In this document: in pieces, positions 16,660-58,074 of the stretch
Numbering within the stretch: the first letter of the stretch is position 1
How the letters are laid out: each line of letters starts with the position of its first letter
DNA from: Micromonospora sonneratiae
Lineage (GTDB): Bacteria; Actinomycetota; Actinomycetes; Mycobacteriales; Micromonosporaceae
NCBI RefSeq assembly: GCF_042679305.1
Contig: NZ_JBHTMP010000017.1
Span: 13,551 to 77,550 of the forward strand
Direction of reading: 5' to 3'
Length of the DNA stretch: 64,000 nucleotides
Notes under the pieces: generated by a model
What the model was told of the DNA's origin: nothing
The model's input: only the letters and a program-made list of their open reading frames with translations
Database searches by the model: none
Translations under genes and position numbers: made by a program

Positions 16660-16796
16660 GGCAGCCAGATCATCGATACGTCGTCCGTTTTCCCCGCTCC
16701 TTTCGTTGCGAACTGCCCGACCGGGTGATTCCACGGATCCGCAATGGTTGCCGGGGCTCGGTACGTCCAAGGAGGCGAGGACCTCTGGAGGTGTCC

Positions 16797-17276
16797 GTGA
16801 CGTACGAGGAGTTCGCCGACTCCCGACTGGCGGCGTTACTGCGGTACGCGGTGATGTTGACCGGTGATCCACACCTGGCCCAGGACCTGGTGCAGGAAAC
16901 GATGGTGCGGGTGCAGCTCAACTGGCGGCGGGTGGACCGGGCCGACTCACCCGAACGCTACGTACGCCGAATGCTGACGAACCAGTTCGTCGACTGGCGG
17001 CGGGGGTCCTGGGTCAGGCGGGTGCTGTTGCGGGCCGAGCCGGAGGAACTCGCCGTACCGACGGACCACGCCCAGACCACCGCGGACCGGGACCAACTCT
17101 GGTCCCAGCTGGCCCGGCTGCCGCGCCGGCAACGGGCGGCGTTGGTGCTGCGCTACTACGAGGACCTGCCCGATGCGGAGATCGCCGAGGTGCTCGGGTG
17201 CGCGGTCGGGACCGTGCGGTCCGCCATCTCCCGTGCGCTGGCCACGCTTCGCGCCGAACTAGTGGAGGCTTGCTGA
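16797..17276 (+). CDS. ECF (group 4) RNA polymerase sigma factor
   Basis: GTG 16797 follows GGAGG. Region 2 DLVQETMVRVQLNWRR. Region 4 RQRAALVLRYYEDLPDAEIAEVLGCAVGTVRSAISRAL. Confidence 0.85.
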   Translation: MTYEEFADSRLAALLRYAVMLTGDPHLAQDLVQETMVRVQLNWRRVDRADSPERYVRRMLTNQFVDWRRGSWVRRVLLRAEPEELAVPTDHAQTTADRDQLWSQLARLPRRQRAALVLRYYEDLPDAEIAEVLGCAVGTVRSAISRALATLRAELVEAC

Positions 17277-25007: not shown

Positions 25008-26300
<1,293 letters not shown>

Positions 26301-30351: not shown

Positions 30352-30996
30352 ATGGGTGGGTTCGCCAGCGCGGTGCTCGACTTCCCGACCGTCGTCTTCA
30401 CGTTCCTGCTGGTGGTCGTCATCGGCTATTGGCTGCTCGTGCTGGTCGGCGTGGTCGACCTCGACGGTGACGCCGAAGCCGGCGGATCGGTGAACCTTCT
30501 GGCCGGGCTCGGGCTCGGCGGGCTTCCGGCCACAGTGGTCCTGTCACTTCTGATCGCGGTGGCGTGGTTCGTCAGCCTCGTCGGCACCGTGCTGCTCGAC
30601 ATACTCCTCGGGCTGACCGGACTCGTCCTGGTCGTGCTCTCGGTTTTCGTGCTGGTGGTGGCGCTGGTCTGCGCCTGGTCGGTCACCCGGTTGCTGGTGA
30701 TACCGCTGCGCCACCTGTTCCCGTCCAGCGCGGGCCCTTCCCGTACCGCCTTTGTCGGCAGGTTCTGTGTCATCCGTACCGGTCGGGTGACGGTCGACTT
30801 CGGCCAGGCCGAGGTGACGGCGGAGGACGGGTCGTCCGCTGTCGTCCAGGTGCGGCAGACCGGCGACGAATCCCTTGGTGCTGGCAGCACCGCCCTCATC
30901 TACGACTACGACGCTGACGGCGAGTTCTTCTGGGTCACGGCCATCGACGCCGAACTCCGCCCGGGCCACTCGCCCCATCGACCGAAGGAAATTTGA
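30352..30996 (+). CDS. YqiJ/NfeD-like membrane protein with C-terminal OB-like domain
   Basis: ATG 30352. Three or four TM helices, then RFCVIRTGRVTVDFGQAEVTAEDGSSAVVQVRQ (NfeD-type beta domain). The stop overlaps the flotillin ATG (TGATG). Confidence 0.7.
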   Translation: MGGFASAVLDFPTVVFTFLLVVVIGYWLLVLVGVVDLDGDAEAGGSVNLLAGLGLGGLPATVVLSLLIAVAWFVSLVGTVLLDILLGLTGLVLVVLSVFVLVVALVCAWSVTRLLVIPLRHLFPSSAGPSRTAFVGRFCVIRTGRVTVDFGQAEVTAEDGSSAVVQVRQTGDESLGAGSTALIYDYDADGEFFWVTAIDAELRPGHSPHRPKEI

Positions 30997-33005
30997 TGGA
31001 AGTAATCACCACCGGGCTCGGCGTTCTGTTGGGTGTCATCCTTCTTGTCGTCATCTGCATCATGTTCATCGTCAGCCGACTGTTCCGGAAGGTGGAGCAG
31101 GGCAAGGCCCTGATCATCTCCAAGGTCCGGCGGGTCGACGTGACGTTCACCGGCGCGGTGGTCCTGCCGGTGCTGCACAAGGCCGAGATCATGGACATCT
31201 CGGTGAAGACCATCGACATCGAGCGGACCGGCAACGAGGGCCTGATCTGCCGGGACAACATCCGGGCCGACATCCGGATCACCTTCTTCGTGCGGGTCAA
31301 CAAGACCACCGAGGACGTGGTCAAGGTGGCTCAGGCGATCGGTACGGCCCGGGCCAGTGACCGGGAGACCCTGCAGGAGCTGTTCAACGCGAAGTTCTCC
31401 GAGGCGCTGAAGACGGTCGGTAAGCAGCTGGACTTCGTCGACCTCTACACCAAGCGGGACGAGTTCCGCGACCGGATCATCCAGGTCATCGGCACCGACC
31501 TCAACGGTTACAGCCTTGAGGACGCCGCCATCGACTTCCTGGAGCAGACCCCGCTGGCCCAGCTCGACGCCGCCAACATCCTGGACGCGCAGGGCATTCG
31601 CAAGATCACTGAGCTGACCGCGATCGAGCACGTCCGTACCAACGAGTTCCAGCGCAACGAACAGAAGGAGATCACCCGCCAGAACGTCGACGCCCGGGAG
31701 GCCATCCTGGAGCTGGAACGCCGGCAGGCCGACGCCGAGATCAAGCAGCGCCGCGAGATCGAGACGATGCGGGCCAGGGAAGAAGCGGAGATTTCCCGGG
31801 TACGGGCCGAGGAGCGGCTCAAGGCCGAGTCGGCCGGTATCCGTACCGACGAGCAGCTCGGCGTCCAGCAGGAGAACCTGGCCCGGGAGATCGCCGTCGC
31901 GGAGAAGAACCGGGAACGGGTCATCGCGATCGAGACCGAGCGGATCGAGAAGGACCGGCTGCTGGAGGTCATCGCCCGGCAGCGGGAGACCGAACTCTCC
32001 ACCATCGCCAAGGACAAGGAGGTGGAGGCGGAGAAGCGGTCCATCGCCGAGGTGGTCCGGGAGCGGATCGCGGTGGAGAAGACGGTCGCCGAGCAGGAGG
32101 AGAACATCAAGCGCCTGCGGGTGGTCGAGGAGGCCGAGCGGACCCGGCAGGCGGTGGTGATCCAGGCCGAGGCGGAGGCGCAGGAGAACCTGGTCAAGGA
32201 CATCAAGGCCGCCGAGGCGGCCGAGCAGGCGGCCAAGCACCGGGCCCGGGAGCAGATGGTGCTGGCCGAGGCCCGCCAGCAGGCGGCCGAGTTGGAGACC
32301 CGGGCGAAGATCCGGCTGGCCGAGGGCCTACAGGCCGAGGCGGCTGCCGCAGGCCTGGCCGAGGTGCAGGTACGCGAGCGGGGTGCCGAGGCGATCGAGC
32401 GGGTCGGCCGGGCCGAGGCGATCGTCGAGCGGGAGAAGGCGCTGGCGGTGGCCGAGGCGGTACGGGAGAAGCTCAAGGGCGAGGCCGAGGGTCTGACCGA
32501 GAAGGCAGCCGCGATGGCGGCCCTCGACGACGCGACCCGTGACCACGAGGAGTACCGCCTGCGGTTGGAGGCGGAGAAGGAGATCCGCCTGGCCGGCATC
32601 GACGTGCAGCGGCAGGTCGCCGAGGCGCAGGCCAAGGTGGTGGCGGCCGGCCTGGAGAAGGCCAACATCGACATCGTCGGTGGCGACACGGTCTTCTTCG
32701 ACCGGCTGATGGGCTCGATCACGCTCGGCAAGAGCGTCGACGGTTTCGTCCAGCACTCCGACGTCGCCCAGACCCTGGCGCGGCCGTGGCTGGACGGATC
32801 CTCGAACTTCACCGACGACCTGGGCAAACTGCTCGGCGCGCTGAACACCGCCGACGTGCAGAACCTCACCGTCTCCGCGTTCCTGATGCAGCAGATCAAG
32901 GCCGGTGGGTCGAACGCGGACAAGCTGCGGGAGCTGCTGACCGCCGCGCAGCGCCTCGGTGTGGCGGAGGCGCCGGTGGCCGCCCTCACCGGCGCGAAGA
33001 AGTGA
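30996..33005 (+). CDS. Flotillin / SPFH (band-7) family protein
   Basis: N-terminal TM hairpin. SPFH core KALIISKVRRVDVTFTGAVVLPVLHKAEIMDISVKTIDIER...RADIRITFFVRV. About 270 aa of A/E/R-rich coiled coil. Flotillin C-terminus. Confidence 0.9.
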   Translation: MEVITTGLGVLLGVILLVVICIMFIVSRLFRKVEQGKALIISKVRRVDVTFTGAVVLPVLHKAEIMDISVKTIDIERTGNEGLICRDNIRADIRITFFVRVNKTTEDVVKVAQAIGTARASDRETLQELFNAKFSEALKTVGKQLDFVDLYTKRDEFRDRIIQVIGTDLNGYSLEDAAIDFLEQTPLAQLDAANILDAQGIRKITELTAIEHVRTNEFQRNEQKEITRQNVDAREAILELERRQADAEIKQRREIETMRAREEAEISRVRAEERLKAESAGIRTDEQLGVQQENLAREIAVAEKNRERVIAIETERIEKDRLLEVIARQRETELSTIAKDKEVEAEKRSIAEVVRERIAVEKTVAEQEENIKRLRVVEEAERTRQAVVIQAEAEAQENLVKDIKAAEAAEQAAKHRAREQMVLAEARQQAAELETRAKIRLAEGLQAEAAAAGLAEVQVRERGAEAIERVGRAEAIVEREKALAVAEAVREKLKGEAEGLTEKAAAMAALDDATRDHEEYRLRLEAEKEIRLAGIDVQRQVAEAQAKVVAAGLEKANIDIVGGDTVFFDRLMGSITLGKSVDGFVQHSDVAQTLARPWLDGSSNFTDDLGKLLGALNTADVQNLTVSAFLMQQIKAGGSNADKLRELLTAAQRLGVAEAPVAALTGAKK

Positions 33006-33012
33006 CGCCCGG

Positions 33013-36000
33013 GTGGCTGAGTTCGTGACCGGGTCCACCACCGTCGAATCGGGCGACCAGAACCGGACCGCCGACCAGGCGGGGATGGACGCCGGCACCT
33101 ACGACGTACTCCGGAACCGGCTGGCGGAACGCGCCACGGAGCTGGCCCGCCGGGCCGAGCAGCTCAACGCCCGACGGCTGGACGTCTTCGGCGGCACCGA
33201 GCTGCGGCTGCTCGGCACCGAGCGGATCCGTACGCAGCACAACTGCGTACCCCGCGACATCGTGTCGGTCGGCGGGCTGATGCTGTTCGGCTACAACGTG
33301 TTCATCGGGCTGAAGCCCGAGACGACGGTGGACGACGTCTTCTCGCTGCACCGGTTCACCCGCGAGGCGGCCCCGGACACCGGCGGCGGGGAGGTCTTCC
33401 GGTTCGCCGAGGTGGACCCGGTCGAGCTTCCCGAACTGCTACGTGACCAGCAGTTCGAGCGCGACTTCGGCGAACTCTACCGGTACTACCGGGAGACCCG
33501 GCTGCTGCAACTACGGCGGACCGACGGCCGGCTGCTGGCCATCTTCCAGACCGGTCCGCGTACCGAGGACATCCGGGTCCTGCGCTGGCGGGTCGACGCC
33601 GACGGGACGATCGGCTACCTCGACAACCGGGGCGAGCGCGACCACGTGTTCCCGCCCGCGCACGACTTCGAGTGGATCGAGACCACTCGTGAGGACCACG
33701 TGCTCGGTCGGCACCCGCACATCTCGATCCGGGGCGAGGTGTTCGTCGAGACGGTCGGCGGCAACCTCACCGTGAAGATCGAGAACAACACGGAGACCGG
33801 CGAGGGCATCTACGGCGAGCCGGTGGACGAGCCGCTACAGAGCCTGGCCGACGCCGACATCCACTACGCCGTCGTCGGTCCGCTGATCCTGCTCCGGATC
33901 CGGCCGTACAAGGAGACCGAGTGGCGGCACCTGGTCTTCAACACGACCACCAAGACGGTCGTACGTCTGGACGGCATCGGACAGGCCTGTCAGCGGTTGC
34001 CGGAGGACCACGGGATCATCTTCCCCGGGGGCTACTACCTGGCCACCGGGGTCAGCCGGACCTTCGACACGGTGGTCGACGACCTCGAGTTCGAGCGGGT
34101 CATCCGGTCCACCAACGGGGAGGACGTGCTCTACGTCTTCCATGCCCGCAAGGACGGTCGCAGCCTGCTGCTGCCGTACAACGTGATCCGTAAGGAGGTC
34201 GCCACCCCGGTTCCCTGCCACGGCTACTCGCTCTTCGACGACGGCACGCTGGTGGTGTTCCGGGCGACCTCCGAGGAGCCGACCCGGGTCCACCCGATGC
34301 AGATCTGGCAGACCCCGTACCTGTCCGACACCTACTCCGCCGCCCAGCCGGTCGGCAGTGGTCCGTTGGAGCGGGTCGGTAACGCAGACCTGGTACGCGG
34401 CATCTCGGACTGCCTGTCGGTGGCCCGGATGGTGGGCGAGATGACCCCGGCGGTCGGGGTGTTCGAGGCACTGATCGCCGGGTGCACCCGGGCCTTCGAC
34501 CACTACCACTGGCTCGGCGACCCGGAACTGGACGACCTGGGCGGGCCGCTGGCCGAGGTCCGGGCGATCGCGCAGCAGGTCCTGGACGAGTTCGAGAAGG
34601 TCCAGTCGCTCACCGCACAGGCAGCGGCGACCCTGGAGGAAACCGCCGCCCGGATCGCCTCCCTGGTCCGCCGGGTACGCGGCGAAGCGCCGCTGACCGC
34701 CGACGACTGGGTACGCCAACTCGCCGGGCTGCGTCAGGCGCAGGGCCAGTTGGTGACCCTGCGTGAGCTGCGGTACGTCGACGCGGCCCGGATCGACCGG
34801 CTGGCCGCCGAACTGGCCGAGGAGTTGACCGCCGCCGCCCAGCGTGCGGTCCGGTTCCTCCAGCAGGAGGACGCCTTCGCCGACTACCACGTCGAGGTCG
34901 ACCGGTTGGCCACGGCCGCCGGCGCGATCAGCACCGTGGCCGAGGCCGGGCCGGTCCGGGACCGGCTGGCCGAACAGGCCGAAGGGCTACAGATCGTCAC
35001 CGAGGTGGTGGGCAGCCTCGACATCGCCGACGCGACCGTACGGACCGGCATCCTGGAGCAGGTCGCCGAGGTGCTGGGCGGGGTCAACCGGGTCCGGGCC
35101 ACGTTGGACGGCCGTCGGGCGCAACTGCTGGCGGCAGAGGGGCGGGCCGGCTTCGCCGCCGAGTTCGCCCTGCTCGGGCAGGCGGTCACGGGTGCGCTGG
35201 CGGTGAGCGACACCGCCGAGAAGTGCGACGAGCAGCTGGGCCGGCTGCTGCTCCAGGTGGAGAACCTGGAGTCCCGCTTCGGCGAGTTCGACGACTTCCT
35301 CGCCGAGTTGGCGACCAGACGTACCGACATCTACGAGGCGTTCTCGTCGCGCAAGCAGGCACTGCTCGACGAGCGGGCGCGCCGGGCCGACCGGCTGGTG
35401 TCCTCGGCCGAGCGGATCCTGGTCAGCGTACGGCGTCGGGTCGGCGGGCTGCGTTCCCTCGACGAGGTGAACACCTACTTCGCCTCCGACCCGATGGTCA
35501 CCAAGCTGCGCGGGGTGGCCGACGAGCTGCGTACCCTGGGCGACCAGGTGCGGGCCGACGAGCTGGAGGGGCAGGTCAAGGCCGCTCGCCAGGAGGCCGG
35601 CCGGACGCTGCGTGACCGGATCGACCTCTACCGCGACGGTGGTGACACGATCCGGTTGGGCCGGCACGCCTTCGCCGTCAACACCCAGTCGATCGACGTG
35701 ACCCTGGTTCCGCACGACGGGCGGATGATGGTCGCCATCACCGGCACCGACTACCGCGCACCGGTACGGGACGAGGCGTTCGAGCAGACCCGGGCGTTCT
35801 GGGACCAGTTGCTGGTCTCCGAGTCCGCCGAGGTGTCCCGGGCGGAGTACCTGGCCACGTCGATCCTGGCCGAGGCGGAAGCCGGCACGTCGGGACTGAC
35901 CCTCGACCTGCTGCACGAGACGGCGGTCGGCCCGGCCGGGTTGCGCGACCTGGTCCGCCGCGCGGCGGAGGGGCGGTACGACGAGGGCTACGAGCGGGGT

Positions 36001-38151
36001 GTGCACGATCACGACGCGGCCCTGATCCTCGATGCCCTGCTGCGTCTGCACACCGCGGCCGGGCTGCTGCGTTATCCGCCCGGGGCGCGGGCCGCCGCCC
36101 AGCTCTTCTGGGCGTACGGCACCGGGGACACGGCCCGGGCCGGGTGGTCGAGACGGGCCGCTTCCCTGGGCCGGGCCCGTGCCCGGTTCGGCCGTACGGC
36201 CGCCGTCGGTGAACTGTGCGCGGAACTGGCCGACGCGGCTACCGCGTACCTGCGCGAGGTCGGCCTCGACGACCAGTTGACCGCCGTCGACCTGGCCGGG
36301 GAGTACCTGTTCGAGGAGCTGGCGCGGGAATCGTCGGCCGGCATGGCTGCCGGGACGCCACGCGGGTTCGTGACCGGGGCCGGGGCGCGGACGCTGCTCG
36401 ACCGGTTCCGTCGGACGCTGGGCGGGCCGCAGTCCAGGTCGACCAAGGAGTTCGACGACGACCTGCGGGCGCTCGGTGACGACCTTGCCGCCCGGCACCA
36501 GTTGGTCGTCGCCTGGCTGGAGGCCTACCTGGGCACCGTCCCGGCCGGCGCTGCCGCCGACCCGGGAGCCGGTGTCGCTGCTGATCCGGGAGCTGGCGTC
36601 GCCGCCGATCCGGGCGGTCTCTCCGCGTACGACCTGCCGGAGGCGGTCGCCATCGAGCTGTGCGGTGCCAGCCTGCCCCGGTACGAGTCGGCAGCCAACC
36701 TGTCGACGGAGGTGGGTGGGCTGTTGGCCACCCATCGGCGCATCGTCGGGTCGAACCTGACGCTGCGACTCGACGAGACCCTGGCCCGGACCCGACGGTT
36801 CCGCAACGAGCAGGTGCCGGCCTACCGGGCCTACCAGCAGCGCCGTAACGAACTGGTGGCCCGCGAACGGCAGCGGTTGCGGCTGGAGGAGCACCAGCCG
36901 AAGGTGATGAGCGCCTTCGTCCGTAACCGGCTGCTGGACGAGGTCTACCTGCCGTTGATCGGTGACAACCTGGCCCGGCAACTCGGCGCGGTGGGTGACG
37001 GCAAGCGGGTGGACCAGATGGGTCTGCTCCTGCTGATCTCGCCACCCGGCTACGGCAAGACGACCCTGATGGAGTACGTCGCCAGCCGGCTCGGCCTGGT
37101 GTTCGTCAAGGTCAACGGTCCGGCACTGGGCTCGGCCGTCACCTCGCTGGATCCGGCCGAGGCGCCCAACGCGACCGCCCGCCAGGAGGTCGAGAAGATC
37201 TCGTTCGCGCTGGAGGCGGGCAGCAACGTGCTGCTCTACCTGGACGACATCCAGCACACCTCGCCCGAGCTGTTGCAGAAGTTCATCTCGCTGTGCGACG
37301 GGCAGCGTCGGATGGAGGGGGTGTGGGACGGCCGCACCCGCACGTACGACCTGCGGGGCAAGCGGTTCGCCGTGTGCATGGCCGGCAACCCGTACACCGA
37401 GTCGGGGCAGCGCTTCCGGGTGCCGGACATGCTGGCCAACCGGGCCGACGTGTGGAATCTCGGTGACGTGCTCGCCGGGCGGGACGAGATCTTCGCGTTG
37501 AGCTACGTCGAGAACGCGCTCACCGCCAACCAGGTGCTGGCCCCGCTGTCCACGAGGGAACGCGGCGACGTGGAGCTGCTGGTCCGGCTGGCCCGGGGCG
37601 ACGAGACGGTACGGGCGGACCAGTTGAGTCACCCGTACTCGCCGGTCGAGTTGGAGCAGATCGTCTCCGTACTGCGCAAGCTGCTGCGGGTCCAGCAGGT
37701 GGTGCTGACCAACAACCAGGCGTACATCGCGTCGGCCGCGCAGTCGGACGCGTCCCGTACCGAACCGCCGTTCCAGTTGCAGGGCTCCTACCGGAACATG
37801 AACAAGCTGGCGGAGCGGATCGTCCCGGTGATGAACGACGAGGAACTCGAGATGGTGATCGACGACCACTACCGGGGCGAGGCGCAGACCCTGGCCTCGG
37901 GGGCCGAGGCGAACCTGCTCAAGCTGGCTGAGTTGCGTGGCCGGCTCACCGCCGAGCAGGCCCGCAGGTGGGCCGAGGTGAAGGCCGGTTACCTGCGGGC
38001 CCGGGCGCTCGGCGGGGACCGGGACGATCCGGTGAGTCGTGCGGTCGGGGCACTCGGCCTGTTGGCCGACCGGGTCGGCGACGTGGAGTCGGCGATCCAG
38101 CAGGTGGGTGCCGGGGTACGCCGGGTCGAGGTGGGCGGAGCGGCCGGGTGA
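33013..38151 (+). CDS. Giant (~1710 aa) protein: beta-rich N-terminal domain, long helical region, C-terminal AAA+ ATPase
   Basis: Starts 8 nt after the flotillin stop (GTG 33013; alternatives GTG 33025 and ATG 33085). Walker A LLLISPPGYGKTTL (~aa 1343). Walker B VLLYLDDIQH (~aa 1407). AVCMAGNP sensor-1-like. High GC3 throughout. Confidence 0.85.
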   Translation: MAEFVTGSTTVESGDQNRTADQAGMDAGTYDVLRNRLAERATELARRAEQLNARRLDVFGGTELRLLGTERIRTQHNCVPRDIVSVGGLMLFGYNVFIGLKPETTVDDVFSLHRFTREAAPDTGGGEVFRFAEVDPVELPELLRDQQFERDFGELYRYYRETRLLQLRRTDGRLLAIFQTGPRTEDIRVLRWRVDADGTIGYLDNRGERDHVFPPAHDFEWIETTREDHVLGRHPHISIRGEVFVETVGGNLTVKIENNTETGEGIYGEPVDEPLQSLADADIHYAVVGPLILLRIRPYKETEWRHLVFNTTTKTVVRLDGIGQACQRLPEDHGIIFPGGYYLATGVSRTFDTVVDDLEFERVIRSTNGEDVLYVFHARKDGRSLLLPYNVIRKEVATPVPCHGYSLFDDGTLVVFRATSEEPTRVHPMQIWQTPYLSDTYSAAQPVGSGPLERVGNADLVRGISDCLSVARMVGEMTPAVGVFEALIAGCTRAFDHYHWLGDPELDDLGGPLAEVRAIAQQVLDEFEKVQSLTAQAAATLEETAARIASLVRRVRGEAPLTADDWVRQLAGLRQAQGQLVTLRELRYVDAARIDRLAAELAEELTAAAQRAVRFLQQEDAFADYHVEVDRLATAAGAISTVAEAGPVRDRLAEQAEGLQIVTEVVGSLDIADATVRTGILEQVAEVLGGVNRVRATLDGRRAQLLAAEGRAGFAAEFALLGQAVTGALAVSDTAEKCDEQLGRLLLQVENLESRFGEFDDFLAELATRRTDIYEAFSSRKQALLDERARRADRLVSSAERILVSVRRRVGGLRSLDEVNTYFASDPMVTKLRGVADELRTLGDQVRADELEGQVKAARQEAGRTLRDRIDLYRDGGDTIRLGRHAFAVNTQSIDVTLVPHDGRMMVAITGTDYRAPVRDEAFEQTRAFWDQLLVSESAEVSRAEYLATSILAEAEAGTSGLTLDLLHETAVGPAGLRDLVRRAAEGRYDEGYERGVHDHDAALILDALLRLHTAAGLLRYPPGARAAAQLFWAYGTGDTARAGWSRRAASLGRARARFGRTAAVGELCAELADAATAYLREVGLDDQLTAVDLAGEYLFEELARESSAGMAAGTPRGFVTGAGARTLLDRFRRTLGGPQSRSTKEFDDDLRALGDDLAARHQLVVAWLEAYLGTVPAGAAADPGAGVAADPGAGVAADPGGLSAYDLPEAVAIELCGASLPRYESAANLSTEVGGLLATHRRIVGSNLTLRLDETLARTRRFRNEQVPAYRAYQQRRNELVARERQRLRLEEHQPKVMSAFVRNRLLDEVYLPLIGDNLARQLGAVGDGKRVDQMGLLLLISPPGYGKTTLMEYVASRLGLVFVKVNGPALGSAVTSLDPAEAPNATARQEVEKISFALEAGSNVLLYLDDIQHTSPELLQKFISLCDGQRRMEGVWDGRTRTYDLRGKRFAVCMAGNPYTESGQRFRVPDMLANRADVWNLGDVLAGRDEIFALSYVENALTANQVLAPLSTRERGDVELLVRLARGDETVRADQLSHPYSPVELEQIVSVLRKLLRVQQVVLTNNQAYIASAAQSDASRTEPPFQLQGSYRNMNKLAERIVPVMNDEELEMVIDDHYRGEAQTLASGAEANLLKLAELRGRLTAEQARRWAEVKAGYLRARALGGDRDDPVSRAVGALGLLADRVGDVESAIQQVGAGVRRVEVGGAAG

Positions 38152-43264: not shown

Positions 43265-44575
43265 TCACCGGGACTGGCTGACCGGCACCGTCCCGAGCGG
43301 CACCGTCCCGACCGGCACCGGCGAGTCGGCCGGGGCCGGGTCCAGCAGTGGCCCTCTCACCGACTTGTCCTCGGCCGTGGGGCCGTGGGAGGTGAGCACC
43401 ACCGGGCAGGCCAGCTCGTCCTCGACCGTGGCGACCCAGTCGCGGGGTGGTTCGTCGTACCCGGGTCGGGAGCGCAGCAGTCGACCGGTCAGCGCGGCCT
43501 GCCGGTCCAGGTCCCCGACCGGACCCGGTGCGAGCCGGTCCGTCCAGTCGTAGCGGCGACAGATCCGTAGCTGCGGACCGGCCAGGTCCAGGTGCGTCAG
43601 CGCCAGTCCGTCCACACCGCCGGCCACCTCCAGCGCGTACCGGTGGGCCACCGCGTCGAAGTGCCCGAACCGGAACCGGCCCTGCCACGGGTTGGTCGGG
43701 TTGCGCGGGTCGGCGAACGGCAGGGTCGGGTCCTCGGTCACCAGTGGCCCGGGACCGTGCCGGGTGGTGGCGGTACGCAGCACGCCGAGTCGGGTCGCCG
43801 TACCCGACATGCCGGCCTCCGCCAGCAGCCGCTCGGCGTTGGTGAACGTCGTCGTGCTCCACGTGGTGTACGGGTGGAAGCCGTGCCACTCGTCCAGCAG
43901 CACGCCCTGGGCGCCCTCGAAGACACAGGTCCCGGACCGCAGCAGCGTCGTCAGGTGATTGCCATCCACTATGGACACGCGCTCGGCGAAGGCGGTGAAG
44001 GCGGTGACACAGTCGTCCACCGGTGGGGCGTCCAGCGGGCCGAGTTCGGCGGTGAGCCGGTCACGCAGCGCGGCCAGCCGCTGGCGCAGCACGGCAGGCG
44101 TGACGCAGTCGCCCACCCGGGGTGCCTCGCCGGGGTACGCGAGGTCGTACGCCATCGTCTCGCCCACCCCCATGCCGCAGGAGCCGTGCCGGTCGGCTCC
44201 CCGGGCGACCTCGCGGGCCCGGTTCGCGGCCCGGTGGTACGGCGTGGTCAGCAGCGCCGCCCCGTCCACGGTGAGCCGGTCGAGCGCGTCCGGCACCCCG
44301 ACGGCGGCGAGGTGGTCGGCCTCGACGGCCAGCGCCAGCGGGTCGACCACCATGAACCGGGACAGGTGGGTTCGCACACCGGGTCGGAACGTGCCCGCTC
44401 CGAACTGCGCGAAGGTGTGCCAGCGGCCGTCGGGCAGGACGACGTTGTGCGCCGCCTGCCCGCCCCCGTTGAAGCGGACCACCGCGTGGACCGGCCGTGT
44501 CGCACACAGCCAGTCCACGACGGTGCCCTTGCCGGCGTCCCCGTACCCGAGGTCGACCACGATCACATGGCTCAC
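43265..44575 (-). CDS. Divergent adenylosuccinate-synthetase-family paralogue
   Basis: GTG 44575 overlaps the vWA stop (GTGA). DLGYGDAGKGTVVD (P-loop), GGGQAAHNV, SCGMGVGETM, LTHLDLAG align with the purA motifs in this window but are substituted. Confidence 0.85.
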   Translation of the reverse strand: MSHVIVVDLGYGDAGKGTVVDWLCATRPVHAVVRFNGGGQAAHNVVLPDGRWHTFAQFGAGTFRPGVRTHLSRFMVVDPLALAVEADHLAAVGVPDALDRLTVDGAALLTTPYHRAANRAREVARGADRHGSCGMGVGETMAYDLAYPGEAPRVGDCVTPAVLRQRLAALRDRLTAELGPLDAPPVDDCVTAFTAFAERVSIVDGNHLTTLLRSGTCVFEGAQGVLLDEWHGFHPYTTWSTTTFTNAERLLAEAGMSGTATRLGVLRTATTRHGPGPLVTEDPTLPFADPRNPTNPWQGRFRFGHFDAVAHRYALEVAGGVDGLALTHLDLAGPQLRICRRYDWTDRLAPGPVGDLDRQAALTGRLLRSRPGYDEPPRDWVATVEDELACPVVLTSHGPTAEDKSVRGPLLDPAPADSPVPVGTVPLGTVPVSQSR

Positions 44576-45534
44576 AGCCGGGTGATCCGATCCGCGTCGG
44601 CCCGGACGGCGGGCAGCGGTGACACCGTGGTCGCCCGCCGGTTGGTACCCACCCGGGCGAGTGCCTTCGACACCGTCCTGGTGGTGGCCGAGCCCGCCTC
44701 GTCGAGGTCGTGCAGGCCGGTGTCGAGGTCGACGGCACCCTCGGCGAGGCCGATGGTGAGCGCGATCGTCTCGCAGACCGCGTTCAGGTCGTCCAGTTCG
44801 AGGACGTTCTGACCGAGCAGGTCCCGCCAGAAGTCCAGCACCCGCGCGTCCCCGGCGTACCCGGTTCCGGCCGGCAGCAGGTAGTAGGTGTCGTACCTAC
44901 GGGTCACCTCGTGGATCAGGTGGGCCAGCGGAACGGCCTCGGTCAACTCGTCGCCGATCAGCCTGCTCACCTCGCGCGGCTTGACCTCCGGGTAGGCCAG
45001 TTCGTCGCCGATGATGAACAGGTAGCCGCGGTGTCCCCGCCGCTCGAAACAGTCGATCGAGGTGTGCCGGGCCATGAAGTACAGGGCCAGCTCGTACGAC
45101 TCGGTCATCTGCCCGCCGCCGCCGCCCTCCAGCACGATCCGGCCGAGGTCGTCGTCCATCCGGTTGTCGGACTCGAACTGCCCGACCTGGAGCGGTACCC
45201 GGTCGCAGGTGGCGTCGCCGATCGCGCCGAACATGATCTGCGGATCGCGGGCGTACCCCTTGCGTTGCAGCAGGCCGAGCAGTTGCGGGAGCTTGGTCTG
45301 GAGCACCCGGGGTATGCGACGCATCGAGCCGGTGACGTCGAAGAGGACGGCGATCGCCAACGACTCGGGGTGTTCGGCCGAGTCACGGCTCTCCCGTGCC
45401 GCGCCGGACGGGTCGAGCGCCGGGTGGACCGTACGCGCCCCGCTGTCGCTGTAGGCGAAGGCGCTGGTGCCGGTCGACCGCCGATAGCGGTCGGCCGCGT
45501 CGTACACGTCGGTGGACCAGGTTCCACTACCCAT
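44572..45534 (-). CDS. von Willebrand factor A (vWA) domain protein
   Basis: ATG 45534 follows GGAGG. MIDAS VLFDVTGSM. Downstream GAIGD and FIIGDE strands are typical of a vWA Rossmann fold. Confidence 0.8.
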   Translation of the reverse strand: MGSGTWSTDVYDAADRYRRSTGTSAFAYSDSGARTVHPALDPSGAARESRDSAEHPESLAIAVLFDVTGSMRRIPRVLQTKLPQLLGLLQRKGYARDPQIMFGAIGDATCDRVPLQVGQFESDNRMDDDLGRIVLEGGGGGQMTESYELALYFMARHTSIDCFERRGHRGYLFIIGDELAYPEVKPREVSRLIGDELTEAVPLAHLIHEVTRRYDTYYLLPAGTGYAGDARVLDFWRDLLGQNVLELDDLNAVCETIALTIGLAEGAVDLDTGLHDLDEAGSATTRTVSKALARVGTNRRATTVSPLPAVRADADRITRL

Positions 45535-45583: not shown

Positions 45584-46573
45584 TCAGTGGGACGAGTCGG
45601 TGGTCAGGGAGAAGGGACGGAAGACGCGCGGTCCGTACAGGCGCTCGAGCACGTCGTCCAGCTCGCCGAGCAGCCGCCAGGCGTCGTCGGGTCGGGCGCG
45701 CAGCGCCCGTTGGGTGCAGCCGTCGGCGAAGGCCCGCAGCGCCCGAGGGATGCGGTCGCCCATCAGGTACGTCATGCAGCGCGTCGCCATGGCGATGTCG
45801 GTGCCCGGACCGGGCCGGTGTCGCGCCGGCACCTCGGGCGGGTACCAGTCGGCGTACGCCGGTACCAGCGCCGGGACGGTGTCCTCGCCGATCACCGAGT
45901 AGCACCAGTCGACGAGCACCACACCGTGCTCGGTGGGCTCGATGAGTACGTGGTCGGGCAGCACCGCGCCGTGCACCACGCCGGCCCGGTGAGCGAGACC
46001 GAGCGCGACCAGCAGCCGCCGCCACATCCAGGCCGCGTCCCGGGGGTCGAGTCCGTTCGGGTAGGCCCGGTGGACCTCGGCGAGGCTGTGCAGGTCGGGC
46101 GCGGTGGCGACCACGTTGATCACGCGTCGGGCGGCGGTCGCCGGGTCCCGGTGCCGGAACGTCTCGACCAGCCGGGGCACGTACGGCAGATAGCGGGGGT
46201 CGCCCCGCTCGGCCAGCGTGCGCAGGGCGGTGGCCTCGCGTTCCATCAGGTCGTTGTTGGTCGGGTCGCGGGGGAGTTTGAGCCAGCGGCCCGACCCGAC
46301 GTCGTACAGGTCGGTCAGGTCGCCGACGTGTACGACGGCACCGAGGCGGTACGTCCCGACGATGGTGACCGCGTGCCGGGCCCGCCAGCGGGTGGTGACC
46401 CGGATGAACGCTTCGGTGGCGGCGGCCCGGTCGGCTGCGGTGGCGGTGCCGAGCCGATCCGGGTGCAGGGCGGTGACCAGCCGGCGGTACTGGCGGTCCG
46501 GCGCGACGCCGCCGAACAGTTCCTCGTCGGTGCGGGCCGTCGTGACGTGGCGTAGCGCCTCGACGAGGTTCAC
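45584..46573 (-). CDS. J-domain (HPD) fused to APH/protein-kinase-like domain with altered catalytic motif
   Basis: GTG 46573 overlaps the Nudix stop (GTGA). YRRLVTALHPDRLG (J-domain HPD). Kinase-like VVHGAVLPDHVLIEP and VVLVDWCYS (HGD replaced by HGA; DW in the DFG/IDW position). Confidence 0.75.
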   Translation of the reverse strand: MNLVEALRHVTTARTDEELFGGVAPDRQYRRLVTALHPDRLGTATAADRAAATEAFIRVTTRWRARHAVTIVGTYRLGAVVHVGDLTDLYDVGSGRWLKLPRDPTNNDLMEREATALRTLAERGDPRYLPYVPRLVETFRHRDPATAARRVINVVATAPDLHSLAEVHRAYPNGLDPRDAAWMWRRLLVALGLAHRAGVVHGAVLPDHVLIEPTEHGVVLVDWCYSVIGEDTVPALVPAYADWYPPEVPARHRPGPGTDIAMATRCMTYLMGDRIPRALRAFADGCTQRALRARPDDAWRLLGELDDVLERLYGPRVFRPFSLTTDSSH

Positions 46574-47322
46574 CGGATCGTCTCCTCCCGCGCCGGGCGC
46601 AGCAGCGCCGGATGCAGGAGTCGGGCGTCGCCGGCCCGGTAGAGCCGGGCCCGGGGGCCGCCGCGCGCCCCACCGCGTTCGGTGGTCACGCCGGTGCTCT
46701 CCACGAAGCCGGGCACCGAGAGCACCTTCCGGTGGAAGTTGCCGGCGTGCAGCGCATGCCCCCACACCGTCTCGTAGACGGCCCGCAGCTCACCGATGGT
46801 GAACTCGTCACCGAGGAAACGGGTGGCCAACGGGGTGTACTCCAGCTTGGACCGGGCCCGCTCCAGGCCGTCGGCGACGATTCGCTCATGGTCGAAGGCG
46901 AGTTGCCGGGTGGGCAGGTCGGCCACGGGTAGCCAGGCCGCGTCCTCGGCGTCGGTGCCGGCGGCGGGATCGGGCAGGTCGGGTGCGAACGCGAGATGGG
47001 CGACCGACACCACCCGCATCCGTGGGTCGCGGTCAGGTGCGCTGTAACTGGCCAACTGCTCCAGGTGTACGCGTCGCAGCCGCTCGCCGCCGAGCCCGGT
47101 CTCCTCGGCCAACTCGCGCCGTGCGCAGGCGGCCAGGTCCTCGTCCGGCCGTACGAAGCCGCCGGGCAGCGCCCAGAAACCCGAGTACGGCGGTTCGGCG
47201 CGACGGATCAGTAGCAGGTGCAGCGCGTCGTCACGGATGGTCAGCGCGACCACGTCGGCGGTCACCGCGACCGGGGGAAACGCCTGTGGGTCGTACGCGG
47301 CGAGGAAGTCCTCTTCGGTCAC
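46570..47322 (-). CDS. Nudix hydrolase + C-terminal winged-HTH (NrtR-type regulator)
   Basis: GTG 47322 follows GAGGAG. Intact Nudix box GFVRPDEDLAACARRELAEETGL. C-terminal FTIGELRAVYETVWGHALHAGNFHRKV is typical of the NrtR DNA-binding domain. Confidence 0.85.
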   Translation of the reverse strand: MTEEDFLAAYDPQAFPPVAVTADVVALTIRDDALHLLLIRRAEPPYSGFWALPGGFVRPDEDLAACARRELAEETGLGGERLRRVHLEQLASYSAPDRDPRMRVVSVAHLAFAPDLPDPAAGTDAEDAAWLPVADLPTRQLAFDHERIVADGLERARSKLEYTPLATRFLGDEFTIGELRAVYETVWGHALHAGNFHRKVLSVPGFVESTGVTTERGGARGGPRARLYRAGDARLLHPALLRPAREETIR

Positions 47323-47339
47323 AGCGCCAGTTCTCCTCG

Positions 47340-47359
47340 TTCTGAGAAAATCTCAAGAA
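47340..47359 (-). promoter_or_regulatory. AT-rich near-palindrome upstream of the Nudix-regulator operon (candidate operator)
   Basis: TTCTGAGAAAATCTCAAGAA (arms TCTGAGA / TCTCA(A)GA), about 35% GC in a ~72% GC genome, 18-37 nt upstream of the GTG start. Confidence 0.4.
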
Positions 47360-47406
47360 GAGAATAACTGGTGATCGTTTCGGCCACCAGTCCCCGGTAC
47401 GGTCGA

Positions 47407-47961
47407 CTACCTCGTGAACGGAGACCTCGGAAGCTGCGGCAGGGGTGGCCGATCACCCGCCTCGTCGATGACGGTGATCTGCCACCGGACGACCGGGGCT
47501 GCCAGCATCCGGCCGGCGTACCAGCCGAGGGTGCCGGCGGCGATGAGGATCGCCCCGGAGAGGTAGTAGACGGTCAGGTCGCCGAGGTCGACGGTATGGG
47601 CGACCCGGTTCAAGATGATCAGCAGCCCATCCCGATCCAGACAGTGCGGACCGCGGACCTCATACCGTCCGAAGTGTGTCAATGCAACCCCCAGGCTGGC
47701 ACCGGTGCCAGCCTGGGGAAACGCATCCTCAGCGAGGCAGTGGTTCGAGCGCCTCGCCGGCCGACTCTGCTCGCCAGCCGCCAGGGGCCCGTGCCCCGGC
47801 ACGAGGATGTCGAACACCTCGGACCGCATGCGTGAGCAGACCGAGGGCGGCGCATCCGGGTCGACGGTGCCGCTCCGCCAGCCCTGCCACATTCCGAAGG
47901 CCGCGACGATCAGGGCACCGGCGGTCAGCACGGCCAGCCGGGTCCTGCTCTCCGTTCCCAT
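47407..47961 (-). CDS. Hypothetical protein with N- and C-terminal TM helices
   Basis: LAVLTAGALIVAAFGMW and YYLSGAILIAAGTLGWYAG flank a ~110-aa Cys-containing domain. No known motif recognised. Confidence 0.5.
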   Translation of the reverse strand: MGTESRTRLAVLTAGALIVAAFGMWQGWRSGTVDPDAPPSVCSRMRSEVFDILVPGHGPLAAGEQSRPARRSNHCLAEDAFPQAGTGASLGVALTHFGRYEVRGPHCLDRDGLLIILNRVAHTVDLGDLTVYYLSGAILIAAGTLGWYAGRMLAAPVVRWQITVIDEAGDRPPLPQLPRSPFTR

Positions 47962-56649: not shown

Positions 56650-58074
56650 GTGACGAGTATCCCGAACGTCCTTGCCAACCGGTACGCCTCGGCAGAACTG
56701 GCCGCCCTCTGGTCGCCGGAGGAGAAGATCCGGATGGAACGGCGGCTCTGGCTGGCCGTACTCCGGGCGCAGCGGGATCTCGGCATCGCGCTGCCCGACG
56801 GGGTGGTCGAGGCGTACGAGCGGGTGCTCGACCAGGTCGACCTAGCCTCGATCGCGGCCCGGGAGCGGGTCACCCGGCACGACGTGAAGGCGCGGATCGA
56901 GGAGTTCAGCGCGCTGGCCGGGCACGAGCACATCCACAAGGGCATGACCTCGCGGGACCTCACCGAGAACGTCGAGCAGCTACAGGTACGCCGCTCGCTG
57001 GAGCTGATCCGGGACCGGGTGGTCGCCACCCTGGCCCGGCTGGCCCGCCTGGCCGTGGAGCACTCCGACCTGGTGCTGACCGGCCGGTCGCACAACGTCG
57101 CGGCGCAGGCCACCACGCTGGGCAAGCGGTTCGCGTCGGCGGCCGAGGAACTGCTGATCGCGTACGAGCGGCTGGACGACCTGATCGACCGGTACCCGTT
57201 GCGTGGCATCAAGGGGCCGGTCGGCACCGCCGCCGACCAGCTCGACCTCTTCGACGGCGACCCGGAGAAGGTCGCCGAGCTTGAGCGCCGGGTCGCCACC
57301 CACCTCGGCTTCTCCCGGGTGCTGGACAGCGTCGGCCAGGTCTACCCGCGTTCGATCGATTTCGACGTGGTGTCCGCGTTGGCGCAGACGGCCGCCGCCC
57401 CGTCGTCGCTGGCGACGACCATCCGGCTGATGGTTGGCCAGGAGCTGGCCACCGAGGGCTTCAAGCCGGGGCAGGTCGGCTCCAGCGCCATGCCGCACAA
57501 GATGAACACCCGGTCCAGCGAGCGGGTCAACGGCTTCGCGGTGATCATCCGGGGTTACCTGTCGATGATCGGCGAGCTGGCCGGTGACCAGTGGAACGAG
57601 GGCGACGTCTCCTGCTCGGTGGTCCGCCGGGTGGCGCTACCGGACGCCTTCTTCGCCGCCGACGGGCTGTTCCAGACGTTCCTCACCGTGCTCGACGAGT
57701 TCGGCGCGTACCCGGCGGTGATCAACCGCGAGTTGGACCGGTTCCTGCCGTTCCTGGCGACCACGAAGATCCTGGTCGCGGCGGTACGTCGGGGCGTCGG
57801 CCGGGAGGTCGCCCACGAGGCGATCAAGGAGCACGCGGTCGGCGTGGCGCTGGCCATGCGGGAGCAGGGGGCGACCGAGAACGACCTGTTCGACCGGCTG
57901 GCCGCCGACGAACGGCTGGGCCTGACCCGTACCGAGATCGACAAACTGGTGGCCGACCGGGCCGACTTCGTCGGCGCGGCTCCGGCGCAGGTACGGGCGG
58001 TCGCCGGGCGGGTCGCCAACGTGGTCGCGGCGCACCCGGAGGCAGCCGCCTACCAACCCGCCCCGATCCTCTGA
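56650..58074 (+). CDS. purB: Adenylosuccinate lyase
   Basis: LANRYASAELAALWSPE, GRSHNVAAQATTLGKR, GSSAMPHKMNTRSSE signature. Confidence 0.95.
   Translation: MTSIPNVLANRYASAELAALWSPEEKIRMERRLWLAVLRAQRDLGIALPDGVVEAYERVLDQVDLASIAARERVTRHDVKARIEEFSALAGHEHIHKGMTSRDLTENVEQLQVRRSLELIRDRVVATLARLARLAVEHSDLVLTGRSHNVAAQATTLGKRFASAAEELLIAYERLDDLIDRYPLRGIKGPVGTAADQLDLFDGDPEKVAELERRVATHLGFSRVLDSVGQVYPRSIDFDVVSALAQTAAAPSSLATTIRLMVGQELATEGFKPGQVGSSAMPHKMNTRSSERVNGFAVIIRGYLSMIGELAGDQWNEGDVSCSVVRRVALPDAFFAADGLFQTFLTVLDEFGAYPAVINRELDRFLPFLATTKILVAAVRRGVGREVAHEAIKEHAVGVALAMREQGATENDLFDRLAADERLGLTRTEIDKLVADRADFVGAAPAQVRAVAGRVANVVAAHPEAAAYQPAPIL

Follow-up and report, generated by a model that had tools for sequence, protein, structure and literature searches.

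Adenylosuccinate synthetase (AdSS, PurA; EC 6.3.4.4; Escherichia coli structures 1CG0 and 1ADE, Helicobacter pylori structures 6ZXQ and 8QWA) is the closest described relative of the protein studied here, which is encoded on the minus strand (43265-44575) of a 64,000-nucleotide stretch of the Micromonospora sonneratiae contig NZ_JBHTMP010000017.1; this whole stretch is called the window hereafter. The PurA-like protein shares with PurA the fold, the GDxGKG P-loop, the catalytic Asp and His, the equivalents of Q224 and T239, and the TxLD and SxGP guanine-recognition elements, and it presumably follows the same reaction order of O-phosphorylation and then displacement by an amine. Unlike PurA, the clade to which it belongs adds the invariant residues H53, Q57, H130 and N292, and its genes are linked to those of a vWA-domain protein, a probable J-domain pseudokinase and an NrtR-like regulator instead of standing alone as metabolic genes. 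Our favoured reading, to which we assign a probability of about 0.5, is that the protein is a guanosine triphosphate (GTP)-dependent ligase that uses an amine other than aspartate, within a module linked to nicotinamide adenine dinucleotide (NAD) and adenosine diphosphate ribose (ADP-ribose, ADPR).

The PurZ/DgsS and PurZ0 enzymes are likewise phage-encoded divergent PurA proteins with an altered acceptor, and they set a precedent for the retargeting of this fold. However, PurZ is shorter, runs on (deoxy)adenosine triphosphate ((d)ATP), still has the aspartate site and is associated with dATPase, DpoZ and DutZ, whereas the clade described here keeps the GTP determinants and has wholly different gene partners. 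A resemblance of another kind is found in the TerY-P triads, which combine a vWA protein with a Ser/Thr kinase (plus a PP2C phosphatase). Both there and here a compact operon pairs a cytoplasmic vWA/MIDAS protein with a Hanks-type kinase fold, but the kinase-like protein of our module has no catalytic Asp and no phosphatase accompanies it; a probable J domain and the PurA-like enzyme are found instead. The systems centred on ADP-ribosylglycohydrolase (ARG) and regulated by Nudix/WYL proteins, whose vWA "chaperones" are predicted to take part in countering viral ADP-ribosylation, are similar in having a negative regulator with Nudix and helix-turn-helix domains, an ADPR-related enzyme and a peptide-binding vWA partner (Iyer et al. 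2022, PMC9503650). They contain ADP-ribosylglycohydrolase and a phosphatase where the present module has a putative PurA-like ligase and a J-domain pseudokinase, and the module is not mentioned in that paper.

The regulatory layout recalls the NrtR regulons (Rodionov 2008, PMC2330246), in which a regulator with Nudix and winged helix-turn-helix domains is also encoded by the first gene and palindromic operators also lie at its own promoter. The tandem TTCTCA-N4-GAGA operators reported below were derived here. The same work names an nrtX-nrtY pair, which we considered as a possible match to the module; that pair is a two-gene unit, as opposed to a triad plus a regulator. Of the phage NAD+ reconstitution pathways (NARP), NARP2 consists of NadV and NMNAT (bioRxiv 10.1101/2024.02.11.579819), and in some large phages the triad of PurA-like, vWA and J/kinase-like genes lies inside an NrtR-NadV-NMNAT cluster. 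None of the described NrtR regulons or NARP pathways has a PurA-like, vWA or J-kinase gene, and the majority of module copies lie away from any NAD gene. We also considered whether the module is the published NARP3 and rejected this identity, as NARP3 is formed by PnuC and a NadR-like protein.

We found no published characterisation of the clade or of the module in the literature searched, which left most subscription journals outside. In public records the phage enzyme is called "PurA-like" or "2-aminooxy adenylosuccinate synthetase" and its partners are "hypothetical protein", with some UniRef entries named "VWA domain-containing protein". As far as can be told, a retargeted PurA fold within such a gene module has apparently not been described so far.

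A PurA-family clade with its own residue signature

Two members of the family are encoded in the window.

43265..44575, minus strand: PurA-like protein (putative ligase), 436 residues; PF00709, divergent adenylosuccinate-synthetase family; GTG start.
25011..26300, plus strand: canonical purA, used as comparator and lying outside the module; Pfam 612 bits, NCBIfam PurA 635 against a cutoff of 402.

The reading frame of the PurA-like gene is intact, with a G+C content at third codon positions (GC3) of 0.91 over the full open reading frame (ORF) and a coding-type profile, in a window with ~70% G+C. All databases annotate the product as adenylosuccinate synthetase. It scores 198 bits with PF00709 (cutoff 27, residues 5-350), as compared with 612 for canonical PurA, and it falls short of both PurA equivalog models: NF002223 gave 155 bits (cutoff 402; canonical PurA 635) and TIGR00184 gave 113 bits (cutoff 396; canonical PurA 555). 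It also fails the NCBIfam PurZ model NF038379, with 31 bits against a cutoff of 300 (canonical PurA 133). The two window proteins align end to end with 32% identity. The comparison of an AlphaFold model with AdSS structures, which an earlier note made on this DNA from its letters had put forward as a check, returned a confident and complete AdSS fold: the AF2 model has a predicted local distance difference test score (pLDDT) of 93 and a predicted template modelling score (pTM) of 0.91, and its top Foldseek matches are the AdSS structures of E. coli, mouse and plant (E 1e-31, template modelling score, TM, 0.78-0.81). The PurZ/DgsS structures rank 34th or lower, with a TM of ~0.6. Residues 410-436 form a disordered tail.

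An exhaustive phmmer search with the PurA-like protein over 1.84 billion cluster representatives recovered more than 150 representatives at 320-490 bits and 45-66% identity, while the solved canonical AdSS proteins scored ~112 bits. We then compared alignments of 143 cellular representatives, a 40-member subset and 62 viral copies, and all three displayed one and the same invariant signature. Its N-terminal part reads G12 D13 x G K16 G [T/S], R-[F/Y]-N-G-G-A-Q40-A-[A/G]-H43-N and H53-x-F-x-Q57-F-G-S-G; its middle part H130-G-S-C133-G-x-G-[I/V]-G-E-T, F-E-G-A-Q223-G-V-L-L-D and G-F-H-P-[Y/H]-T-T238-W; and its later part R267-x-Y-x-T-R272-H273-G-x-G-P, H-N292-x4-W297-Q298-G-x-F-R302-x-G-x-x-D, T-H328-L-D330 and S396-x-G-P. 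Cellular and viral copies are the same at D13, K16, Q40, H43, H53, F55, Q57, H130, C133, Q223, T238, R267, R272, H273, N292, Q298, R302 and D330, and the active site has a lining of about 20 polar residues that are invariant and specific to the clade. The unusually long members of the clade (P0121, P0135, P0169 and others) were searched for domain fusions and yielded only low-complexity extensions or a Cys-rich tail; the latter belongs to P0135, a protein of 547 residues whose C-terminal extension (CPLC...CRCCGYDRC...CGEC) resembles a zinc ribbon.

Residues were mapped through a HMMER alignment to E. coli AdSS and the contact table of H. pylori AdSS (PMC11571797). In the latter enzyme inosine monophosphate (IMP) is contacted by Asp12, Asn37, Gly119, Thr121, Thr230, Val264 and Arg294, together with Arg135* from the other subunit, and the aspartate site holds a sulfate bound by Arg294 and Arg296 (PMC11571797); the role given below to the equivalents of E. 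coli R303 and R305 follows this table. Seven positions are kept in the PurA-like protein (E. coli number first, PurA-like number in brackets where it differs): D13, K16, H41 (H43), Q224 (Q223), T239 (T238), D333 (D330) and S414 (S396). Of these, D13 is the general base, H41 the catalytic His and T239 a 5'-phosphate ligand, while D333 and S414 confer guanine specificity. The positions that changed, among them R131 and T300/T301, which we take to be aspartate ligands in E. coli, are as follows.

E. coli N38: Q40 in the PurA-like protein, conserved in the clade.
E. coli T128/T129: S132/C133, conserved in the clade.
E. coli R131: M135; M, V or L in the clade.
E. coli R143 (trans-subunit phosphate clamp): G149; D, E or G in the clade.
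E. coli V273: H273, conserved in the clade.
E. coli T300/T301: W297/Q298, conserved in the clade.
E. coli R303: R300, a variable position in the clade.
E. coli K331: H328, conserved in the clade.

Of the R303-R306 run of E. coli a single Arg, the invariant R302, persists in the clade. The PurA-like protein thus does not have the aspartate-site set of PurA proper (R131, T300, T301, R303, R305), and of the ligands of the IMP 5'-phosphate and ribose (N38, T129, T239, R143, V273) it keeps only T239, as T238. The alignments indicate that the aspartate site is gone and that the ribose-5'-phosphate side of the acceptor pocket is relined by His, His, Cys and His. On the other hand, the equivalents of D13, K16, the catalytic His, Q224, D333 and S414 are kept, so the phosphoryl-transfer machinery and the recognition of GTP appear intact.

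These results bear on several claims of the earlier note. The four motifs that it had quoted for the paralogue (GYGDAGKGT, GGGQAAHN, SCGMGVGETM and LTHLDLAG) are all present in the translation of 43265-44575; ITKLDVL and the remaining classical motifs that it had quoted for canonical PurA occur in the product of 25011-26300. Its statement that the P-loop Asp and Lys and the catalytic His are retained extends to the clade, as D13, K16 and H43 are invariant in the 143 cellular and 62 viral homologues. Its claim that the loops contacting IMP and aspartate had been substituted was right for the aspartate site and for the ribose/5'-phosphate side of the IMP pocket, but too broad in that the D13, H41, Q224 and T239 contacts are kept. 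The decayed duplicate that it had named as an alternative was not upheld: the substituted positions are themselves invariant, the GTP-binding residues are kept and the gene is under purifying selection, with a ratio of nonsynonymous to synonymous substitution rates (dN/dS) of 0.22-0.37 (0.22-0.27 within Micromonospora), although it evolves faster than core metabolic genes usually do. Judged by its sequence, the PurA-like protein is a member of a large and distinct PurA-family clade, neither a decayed duplicate nor a spare PurA, and it is very probably an active enzyme other than adenylosuccinate synthetase.

The module in bacteria and in phages

The PurA-like gene is the last of four tightly packed minus-strand genes, in the order regulator, 329-residue protein, 320-residue protein and PurA-like, in which two junctions overlap as GTGA.

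44572..45534, minus strand: vWA/MIDAS-domain protein, 320 residues; its stop overlaps the PurA-like start (GTGA).
45584..46573, minus strand: J-domain-like and Hanks-type kinase-like protein, 329 residues; its start overlaps the regulator stop; PHROG 3043.
46570..47322, minus strand: NrtR-like regulator, Nudix plus NrtR winged helix; Pfam NUDIX PF00293 1.5e-23, NrtR_WHD PF21906 3.5e-11; GTG start.
47336..47362, no strand assigned: predicted operator, tandem imperfect palindromes CTCTTCTTGAGA / TTTTCTCAGAACGAG (TTCTCA-N4-GAGA type), 14-40 nt upstream of the regulator GTG.

The 44572-45534 product has the vWA fold, and its structure model was built from a shallow alignment. Its MIDAS-type motif is an invariant D66-V-T68-G-S70, a DxTxS variant of DxSxS, accompanied by the invariant GD107 and GDE178. 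The protein starts with Met-Gly in 83/83 bacterial and 77/77 viral copies, down to 28% identity, with the N-terminal consensus MG[SGY][GS]x[WYF][SD], and its first ~55 residues are conserved and predicted to be disordered. Most copies end in -RL (46/77 of the viral ones), but loci that have no J/kinase gene mostly encode a vWA protein lacking this tail.

The 329-residue protein begins with a YRRLxxxxHPD segment in which H37-P38-D39 are invariant or nearly so over 19 diverse sequences; the corresponding Pfam DnaJ matches stay below threshold (E 0.14 in the window protein, 0.013 in its phage orthologue). The remainder is homologous to kinases in profile comparisons with the PDB (StkP 3e-11, PknA 6e-8), and the phage orthologue exceeds the Pfam Pkinase cutoff (35.6 vs 31.7). 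The HRDxKxxN pattern is absent: the catalytic loop reads HGAVLPDH, HGA or HTA replaces HRD in all homologues, and the DFG Asp is also gone in the Nocardia, Rhodococcus and Agrobacterium types. Since the catalytic HRD Asp is absent in every homologue, we regard the kinase-like part as a pseudokinase and the 45584-46573 product as a probable J-domain pseudokinase.

We scanned one genome per species and obtained at least 600 pattern matches, of which at least 595 were confirmed as relatives. Among the matches listed, relatives come from Actinomycetota (Micromonospora, Dactylosporangium, Streptosporangium, Actinomadura, some Streptomyces, Frankia, Nocardiopsis, Nocardia and Rhodococcus) and also from Chloroflexota, and the operon is conserved over Actinomycetota, Chloroflexota and some Proteobacteria, as well as on megaplasmids. 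The partners were counted in the 72 best bacterial loci with enough upstream sequence: a vWA-like gene was present in 72/72, a J/kinase-like gene in 61/72 and an NrtR-like gene in 69/72. The last was located upstream in 61 of the 69, whereas loci of the Nocardia/Rhodococcus type have it downstream. In 49/76 loci the vWA stop and the PurA-like start either overlap or are at most 30 nt apart. It is highly probable that the PurA-like, vWA and pseudokinase genes form an obligatory module. No further constant partner was found in the bacterial flanks, where acyl-CoA dehydrogenases, ABC transporters, permeases and DeaD helicases correspond to lineage-specific synteny.

In Micromonospora the position of the operon is fixed, between SDR/MaoC genes and a TetR gene. 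The cassette is also carried by Rhodococcus megaplasmids, among them pLPS8 of Rhodococcus opacus (locus L165, 4930-9019; L numbers are our own handles for loci); in the Rhodococcus copies the Nudix gene lies downstream and a TTTAGTC...GACTAAA palindrome upstream. A more divergent cassette on the Agrobacterium vitis plasmid pRvVAT039a (L164, 5133-9093) lies beside an IS6 transposase gene and a type VI secretion system (T6SS) VgrG gene, and its Nudix regulator is divergently transcribed, with a TTAGAC...GTCTAA palindrome. PADLOC-DB 2.0 gave only generic kinase (MkoA, PD-T4-6) and Nudix (PDC-S07) similarities among the components of the module.

The operator motif has a sole match within the window, at 47336-47362, with 0.12 expected by chance. 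In nearly every genus, the segment just before the regulator gene has a TAnnnT box and, after it, TTCTCA-N4-GAGA(A) repeated in tandem two to four times. With a relaxed tandem CTC-N5-GAG pattern, at least two sites were found within -200 to +20 in 54/61 loci from many actinobacterial genera, compared with 1.1% of random 220-nt background segments from the same loci. The Rhodococcus and Agrobacterium palindromes, which were seen by eye, differ from this motif, consistent with a joint evolution of regulator and operator. The Nudix box is canonical in the window regulator and its REUXEEXG core is kept in the main actinobacterial type, but the strict pattern occurs in only 34/82 copies; therefore we do not claim the regulator as an active hydrolase. 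The anatomy of the operon makes NrtR-type autoregulation likely, with the operon normally repressed.

The triad is shared with phages. The Bixzunavirus genomes (cluster C1 mycobacteriophages, I3 and Bxz1-like; 202 records) encode a PurA-like homologue with 44% identity over 92% of the length, and this homologue is nearer to the window PurA-like protein than the genome's own PurA is (32%). Phage I3 carries the triad as gp270 ("serine/threonine kinase"), gp271 and gp273 ("PurA-like"), with the small gp272 inserted before gp273; gp271 has 43% identity to the window vWA protein (E 1e-72), and gp270 is 35% identical to the window J-pseudokinase (E 4e-57) and shares its HPD and HGA features. The gp272 gene, which separates the vWA and PurA-like genes in Bixzunaviruses, encodes 112 residues (L083, 6645-6983) and has no Pfam match. 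In the announcement of phage Pinkcreek, gene 241, located between the kinase (240) and the PurA-like gene (243), is an HNH endonuclease; if it corresponds to gp272, it would represent a mobile insertion within the triad.

In IMG/VR the clade is encoded on 203 viral contigs, many of 100-500 kb, and each triad protein has a PHROG family of its own (1211, 2971 and 3043). In the 81 viral loci examined, a vWA-like gene was present in 77 and a J/kinase-like gene in 66, while an NrtR-like gene was present in only 9. In our reading, large phages carry the triad constitutively and without the repressor.

Some of these viral copies are embedded in NAD-salvage genes. On the 512-kb viral contig L097 (2496-9537) the order is NrtR, NAMPT (NadV), vWA, PurA-like, J/kinase and a cytidylyltransferase-family (NMNAT-like) gene, and in three viral loci (L097, L101 and L111) the triad lies between NrtR-NadV and the NMNAT-like gene. 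A NadV gene is present at most 6 kb from the triad in L087, L089/090, L097, L101, L111, L127, L133/134 and L141, and the giant viral contigs with the NAD cluster (L097, L101, L111, L087, L089 and L127) measure 275-512 kb. A Pfam scan of 148 ORFs next to the triad, drawn from ~35 viral loci, returned the NAPRTase/NAMPT (4 ORFs) and NrtR/Nudix (3 ORFs) families most often, and terminase, DNA polymerase and lysis genes confirmed the viral context. A phage-borne NrtR regulator adjoining NAD-salvage genes is notable in its own right.

Candidate reaction and competing explanations

Under the favoured reading, the PurA-like protein would use GTP to phosphorylate the oxo group of a purine-type nucleotide, D13 serving as the base and H43 as the acid by analogy with PurA, and an amine would then displace the phosphate on the activated nucleotide. 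We would not expect this amine to be aspartate, since W, Q and a hydrophobic residue occupy the positions that bind its carboxylates in PurA. Plain IMP is an improbable acceptor too, given that the clade has no trans-subunit Arg to clamp the 5'-phosphate and lines its ribose-phosphate pocket with invariant His/His/Cys/His; the acceptor may be a purine-type nucleotide other than IMP, or one that is differently presented. We give little credence to any particular substrate pair. The enzyme would be co-translated with the vWA/MIDAS protein and joined by the J-domain pseudokinase, which may recruit DnaK/Hsp70. The bacterial operon would be repressed by the product of its own first gene, the NrtR-type regulator, on the tandem TTCTCA-N4-GAGA operators. 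As the anti-repressor ligand of the NrtR family is ADP-ribose (PMC2330246), repression would be released once an ADP-ribose-like ligand builds up, i.e. during NAD+ breakdown. The PurA-like protein may thus be the enzymatic core of a NAD/ADP-ribose-responsive nucleotide-modifying module deployed on both sides of the phage-host conflict, and we lean slightly towards a NAD/ADPR-linked role of the module as a whole. The earlier note had already proposed an active GTP-dependent ligase with a different acceptor or amine; the kept residues, the new invariant signature, the dN/dS and the fold speak for this proposal, but the IMP site is only partly rewritten. Its picture of a local paralogue gave way, since the protein is the enzymatic part of a conserved four-gene module common to large phages and connected with NAD-salvage genes.

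Several observations weigh against our preferred reading. The case for ligase activity is made of sequence, a structure model and gene context, and the physical association of the PurA-like, vWA and J-pseudokinase proteins is deduced from gene linkage alone. The J-domain call depends on the invariant HPD and on Pfam scores below threshold. The regulator gives 128 bits with the NCBIfam NtrR equivalog, far under its cutoff of 400, regulators of the Nocardia/Rhodococcus type no longer have the catalytic Nudix glutamates, and ADP-ribose as ligand of the window regulator is assumed from the NrtR family. NadV adjoins the triad in only about a dozen of the 81 viral loci (~1 in 7), and NAD-salvage genes are absent from the bacterial flanks, which contain heterogeneous housekeeping genes, and from the vicinity of the Bixzunavirus copy. 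The Micromonospora operon is vertically inherited among housekeeping genes, which is atypical for defence islands, and PADLOC-DB 2.0 returned no system-level match and no match for the PurA-like or vWA protein.

Two other explanations also suppose a working enzyme with a new substrate. The protein could be a small-molecule NAD enzyme that uses GTP to drive an amidation or a condensation step of NAD+ salvage or reconstitution, complementary to NadV and NMNAT; examples would be the conversion of nicotinic acid mononucleotide (NaMN) or nicotinic acid adenine dinucleotide (NaAD) to nicotinamide mononucleotide (NMN) or NAD with ammonia, the re-amination of deamino-NAD or inosine diphosphate ribose (IDP-ribose), or the activation of ADPR. 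The NrtR-type regulator of 69/72 bacterial loci agrees with such a role, as do the position of the triad between NrtR-NadV and NMNAT-like genes in L097, L101 and L111, its adjacency to NadV in about eight more loci, and the loss of the charged aspartate ligands, which fits a small or neutral amine. Nevertheless, we consider it unlikely: it leaves the vWA protein and the J-domain pseudokinase unexplained as obligatory partners, the clade never departs from D13, H41 and Q224, a set suited to a 6-oxopurine, and the published NARP1-3 use other enzymes, PurA, vWA and adenylosuccinate not being mentioned in the NARP3 paper. The second explanation is a protein-directed ligase, which would join an activated purine nucleotide to the alpha-amine of the N-terminal Gly of the vWA protein after Met removal, the adduct being handled by the J-domain protein and DnaK. 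The nucleophile of PurA is the alpha-amine of an amino acid and exactly the ligands of the aspartate carboxylates are replaced (W, Q, hydrophobic), and therefore the vWA N-terminal Gly becomes, as a speculation, a candidate acceptor. The "MG" start is invariant in 83/83 bacterial and 77/77 viral copies and heads the conserved disordered tail of ~55 residues; the vWA gene adjoins the PurA-like gene in 72/72 bacterial loci, and the stop-over-start overlap is consistent with 1:1 production. But the proposal is speculative, the invariant N-terminus might just as well serve in docking or mark the protein for processing, and the NadV/NMNAT linkage points to small-molecule metabolism, so that we hold it to be improbable. 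We know of no precedent for a purine nucleotide joined to a protein N-terminal glycine.

The explanations that involve no new reaction fare worse. A second, ordinary adenylosuccinate synthetase, i.e. an isozyme for IMP and Asp under different regulation, would account for the full-length AdSS fold, the PF00709 membership, the database annotation and the presence of purB and purD in the same window. It is hard to reconcile with a score of 155 bits where the equivalog cutoff is 402, with the replacement of R131, T300, T301, R303, N38, T129 and R143 by residues kept clade-wide, or with the obligatory linkage to non-metabolic partners and the presence in phages, and we judge it very improbable. 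The same holds for a non-catalytic relic, be it a pseudoenzyme that acts as a GTP-binding scaffold or switch without ligase activity, or a duplicate in decay: the module has a pseudokinase partner and so tolerates dead enzymes, and a dN/dS of 0.22-0.37 is above what is usual for core metabolism, but the general base, the catalytic His, the P-loop Lys, the Q224 equivalent and the Mg/GTP ligands are invariant across cellular and viral copies that share only 35-45% identity, the frame is intact with uniform coding GC3, and about 20 polar active-site residues are invariant. Least credible of all is a PurZ-type enzyme making precursors of 2-aminoadenine (Z), suggested by a phage-borne PurA homologue and by the RefSeq/PHROG 1211 label "2-aminooxy adenylosuccinate synthetase". 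The PurZ model gives 31 bits where 300 are needed, the Foldseek TM of ~0.6 is far under that of AdSS, the length is ~420 residues as opposed to ~340, the guanine-specificity residue D333 is kept, and the aspartate site is lost, whereas PurZ uses aspartate. The label was not found in the literature searched and, since the phage proteins fail the PurZ model, it looks like a propagated annotation error.

It is conceivable, though on present evidence doubtful, that the clade performs a reaction type new for this fold, either the attachment of a GTP-activated purine nucleotide to the vWA N-terminal Gly, the conjugate being handled by a J-domain/DnaK machine, or the key step of a fourth route of NAD+/ADP-ribose recovery or signal editing, to which large phages and bacteria alike would turn upon the destruction of NAD+ in an infection.

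Other features of the window and significance

Between the MaoC-like gene and the promoter of the cassette lies a 184-residue ORF (47407-47961, minus strand; coding-type GC3 of 0.85) with hydrophobic N- and C-terminal segments. It has no Pfam match and is missing from 13 other Micromonospora loci, in which the regulator gene directly follows MaoC; it may be a lineage-specific insertion. The 64-kb window also contains the purine genes purA (25011-26300, plus strand), purD (GARS; 27541-28794, plus strand) and purB (adenylosuccinate lyase; 56650-58074, plus strand); as no purine genes occur among the common flanks of the bacterial loci of other families, these probably reflect local synteny and not functional linkage. 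Further away, 12524-15718 (minus strand) encodes a 1064-residue Pnkp-type RNA repair enzyme with kinase (AAA_33), phosphoesterase (Metallophos) and PNKP ligase domains, and the adjacent 601-residue ORF at 15067-16872 (minus strand) may be its Hen1 partner. A 1730-residue protein with DUF3686 ("ATPase involved in DNA repair", 738 bits), DUF7902 and AAA domains is encoded at 32959-38151 (plus strand); it is preceded and overlapped by a 670-residue ORF without Pfam match (30993-33005, plus strand), the two making up an uncharacterised large ATPase pair.

Our results indicate that many genes annotated as adenylosuccinate synthetase are very probably mis-annotated, namely those of at least 595 bacterial relatives, 203 viral contigs and all Bixzunavirus mycobacteriophages. 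In PurZ, a retargeted PurA fold gave Z-DNA; the present clade would be a second and larger retargeting. M. smegmatis with its cluster C1 phages, a standard experimental system, offers a tractable model. The fixed linkage of the clade to vWA and pseudokinase genes and to an ADP-ribose-type sensor, together with its recurrence beside NadV and NMNAT in giant phages, makes the PurA-like protein an assayable candidate for a new step in the NAD+ depletion and reconstitution of the phage-bacterium conflict, and if either of the new-reaction readings were true, the four-gene module, whose members now carry the labels "adenylosuccinate synthetase" and "hypothetical protein", would constitute a hitherto undescribed system of conflict or homeostasis.

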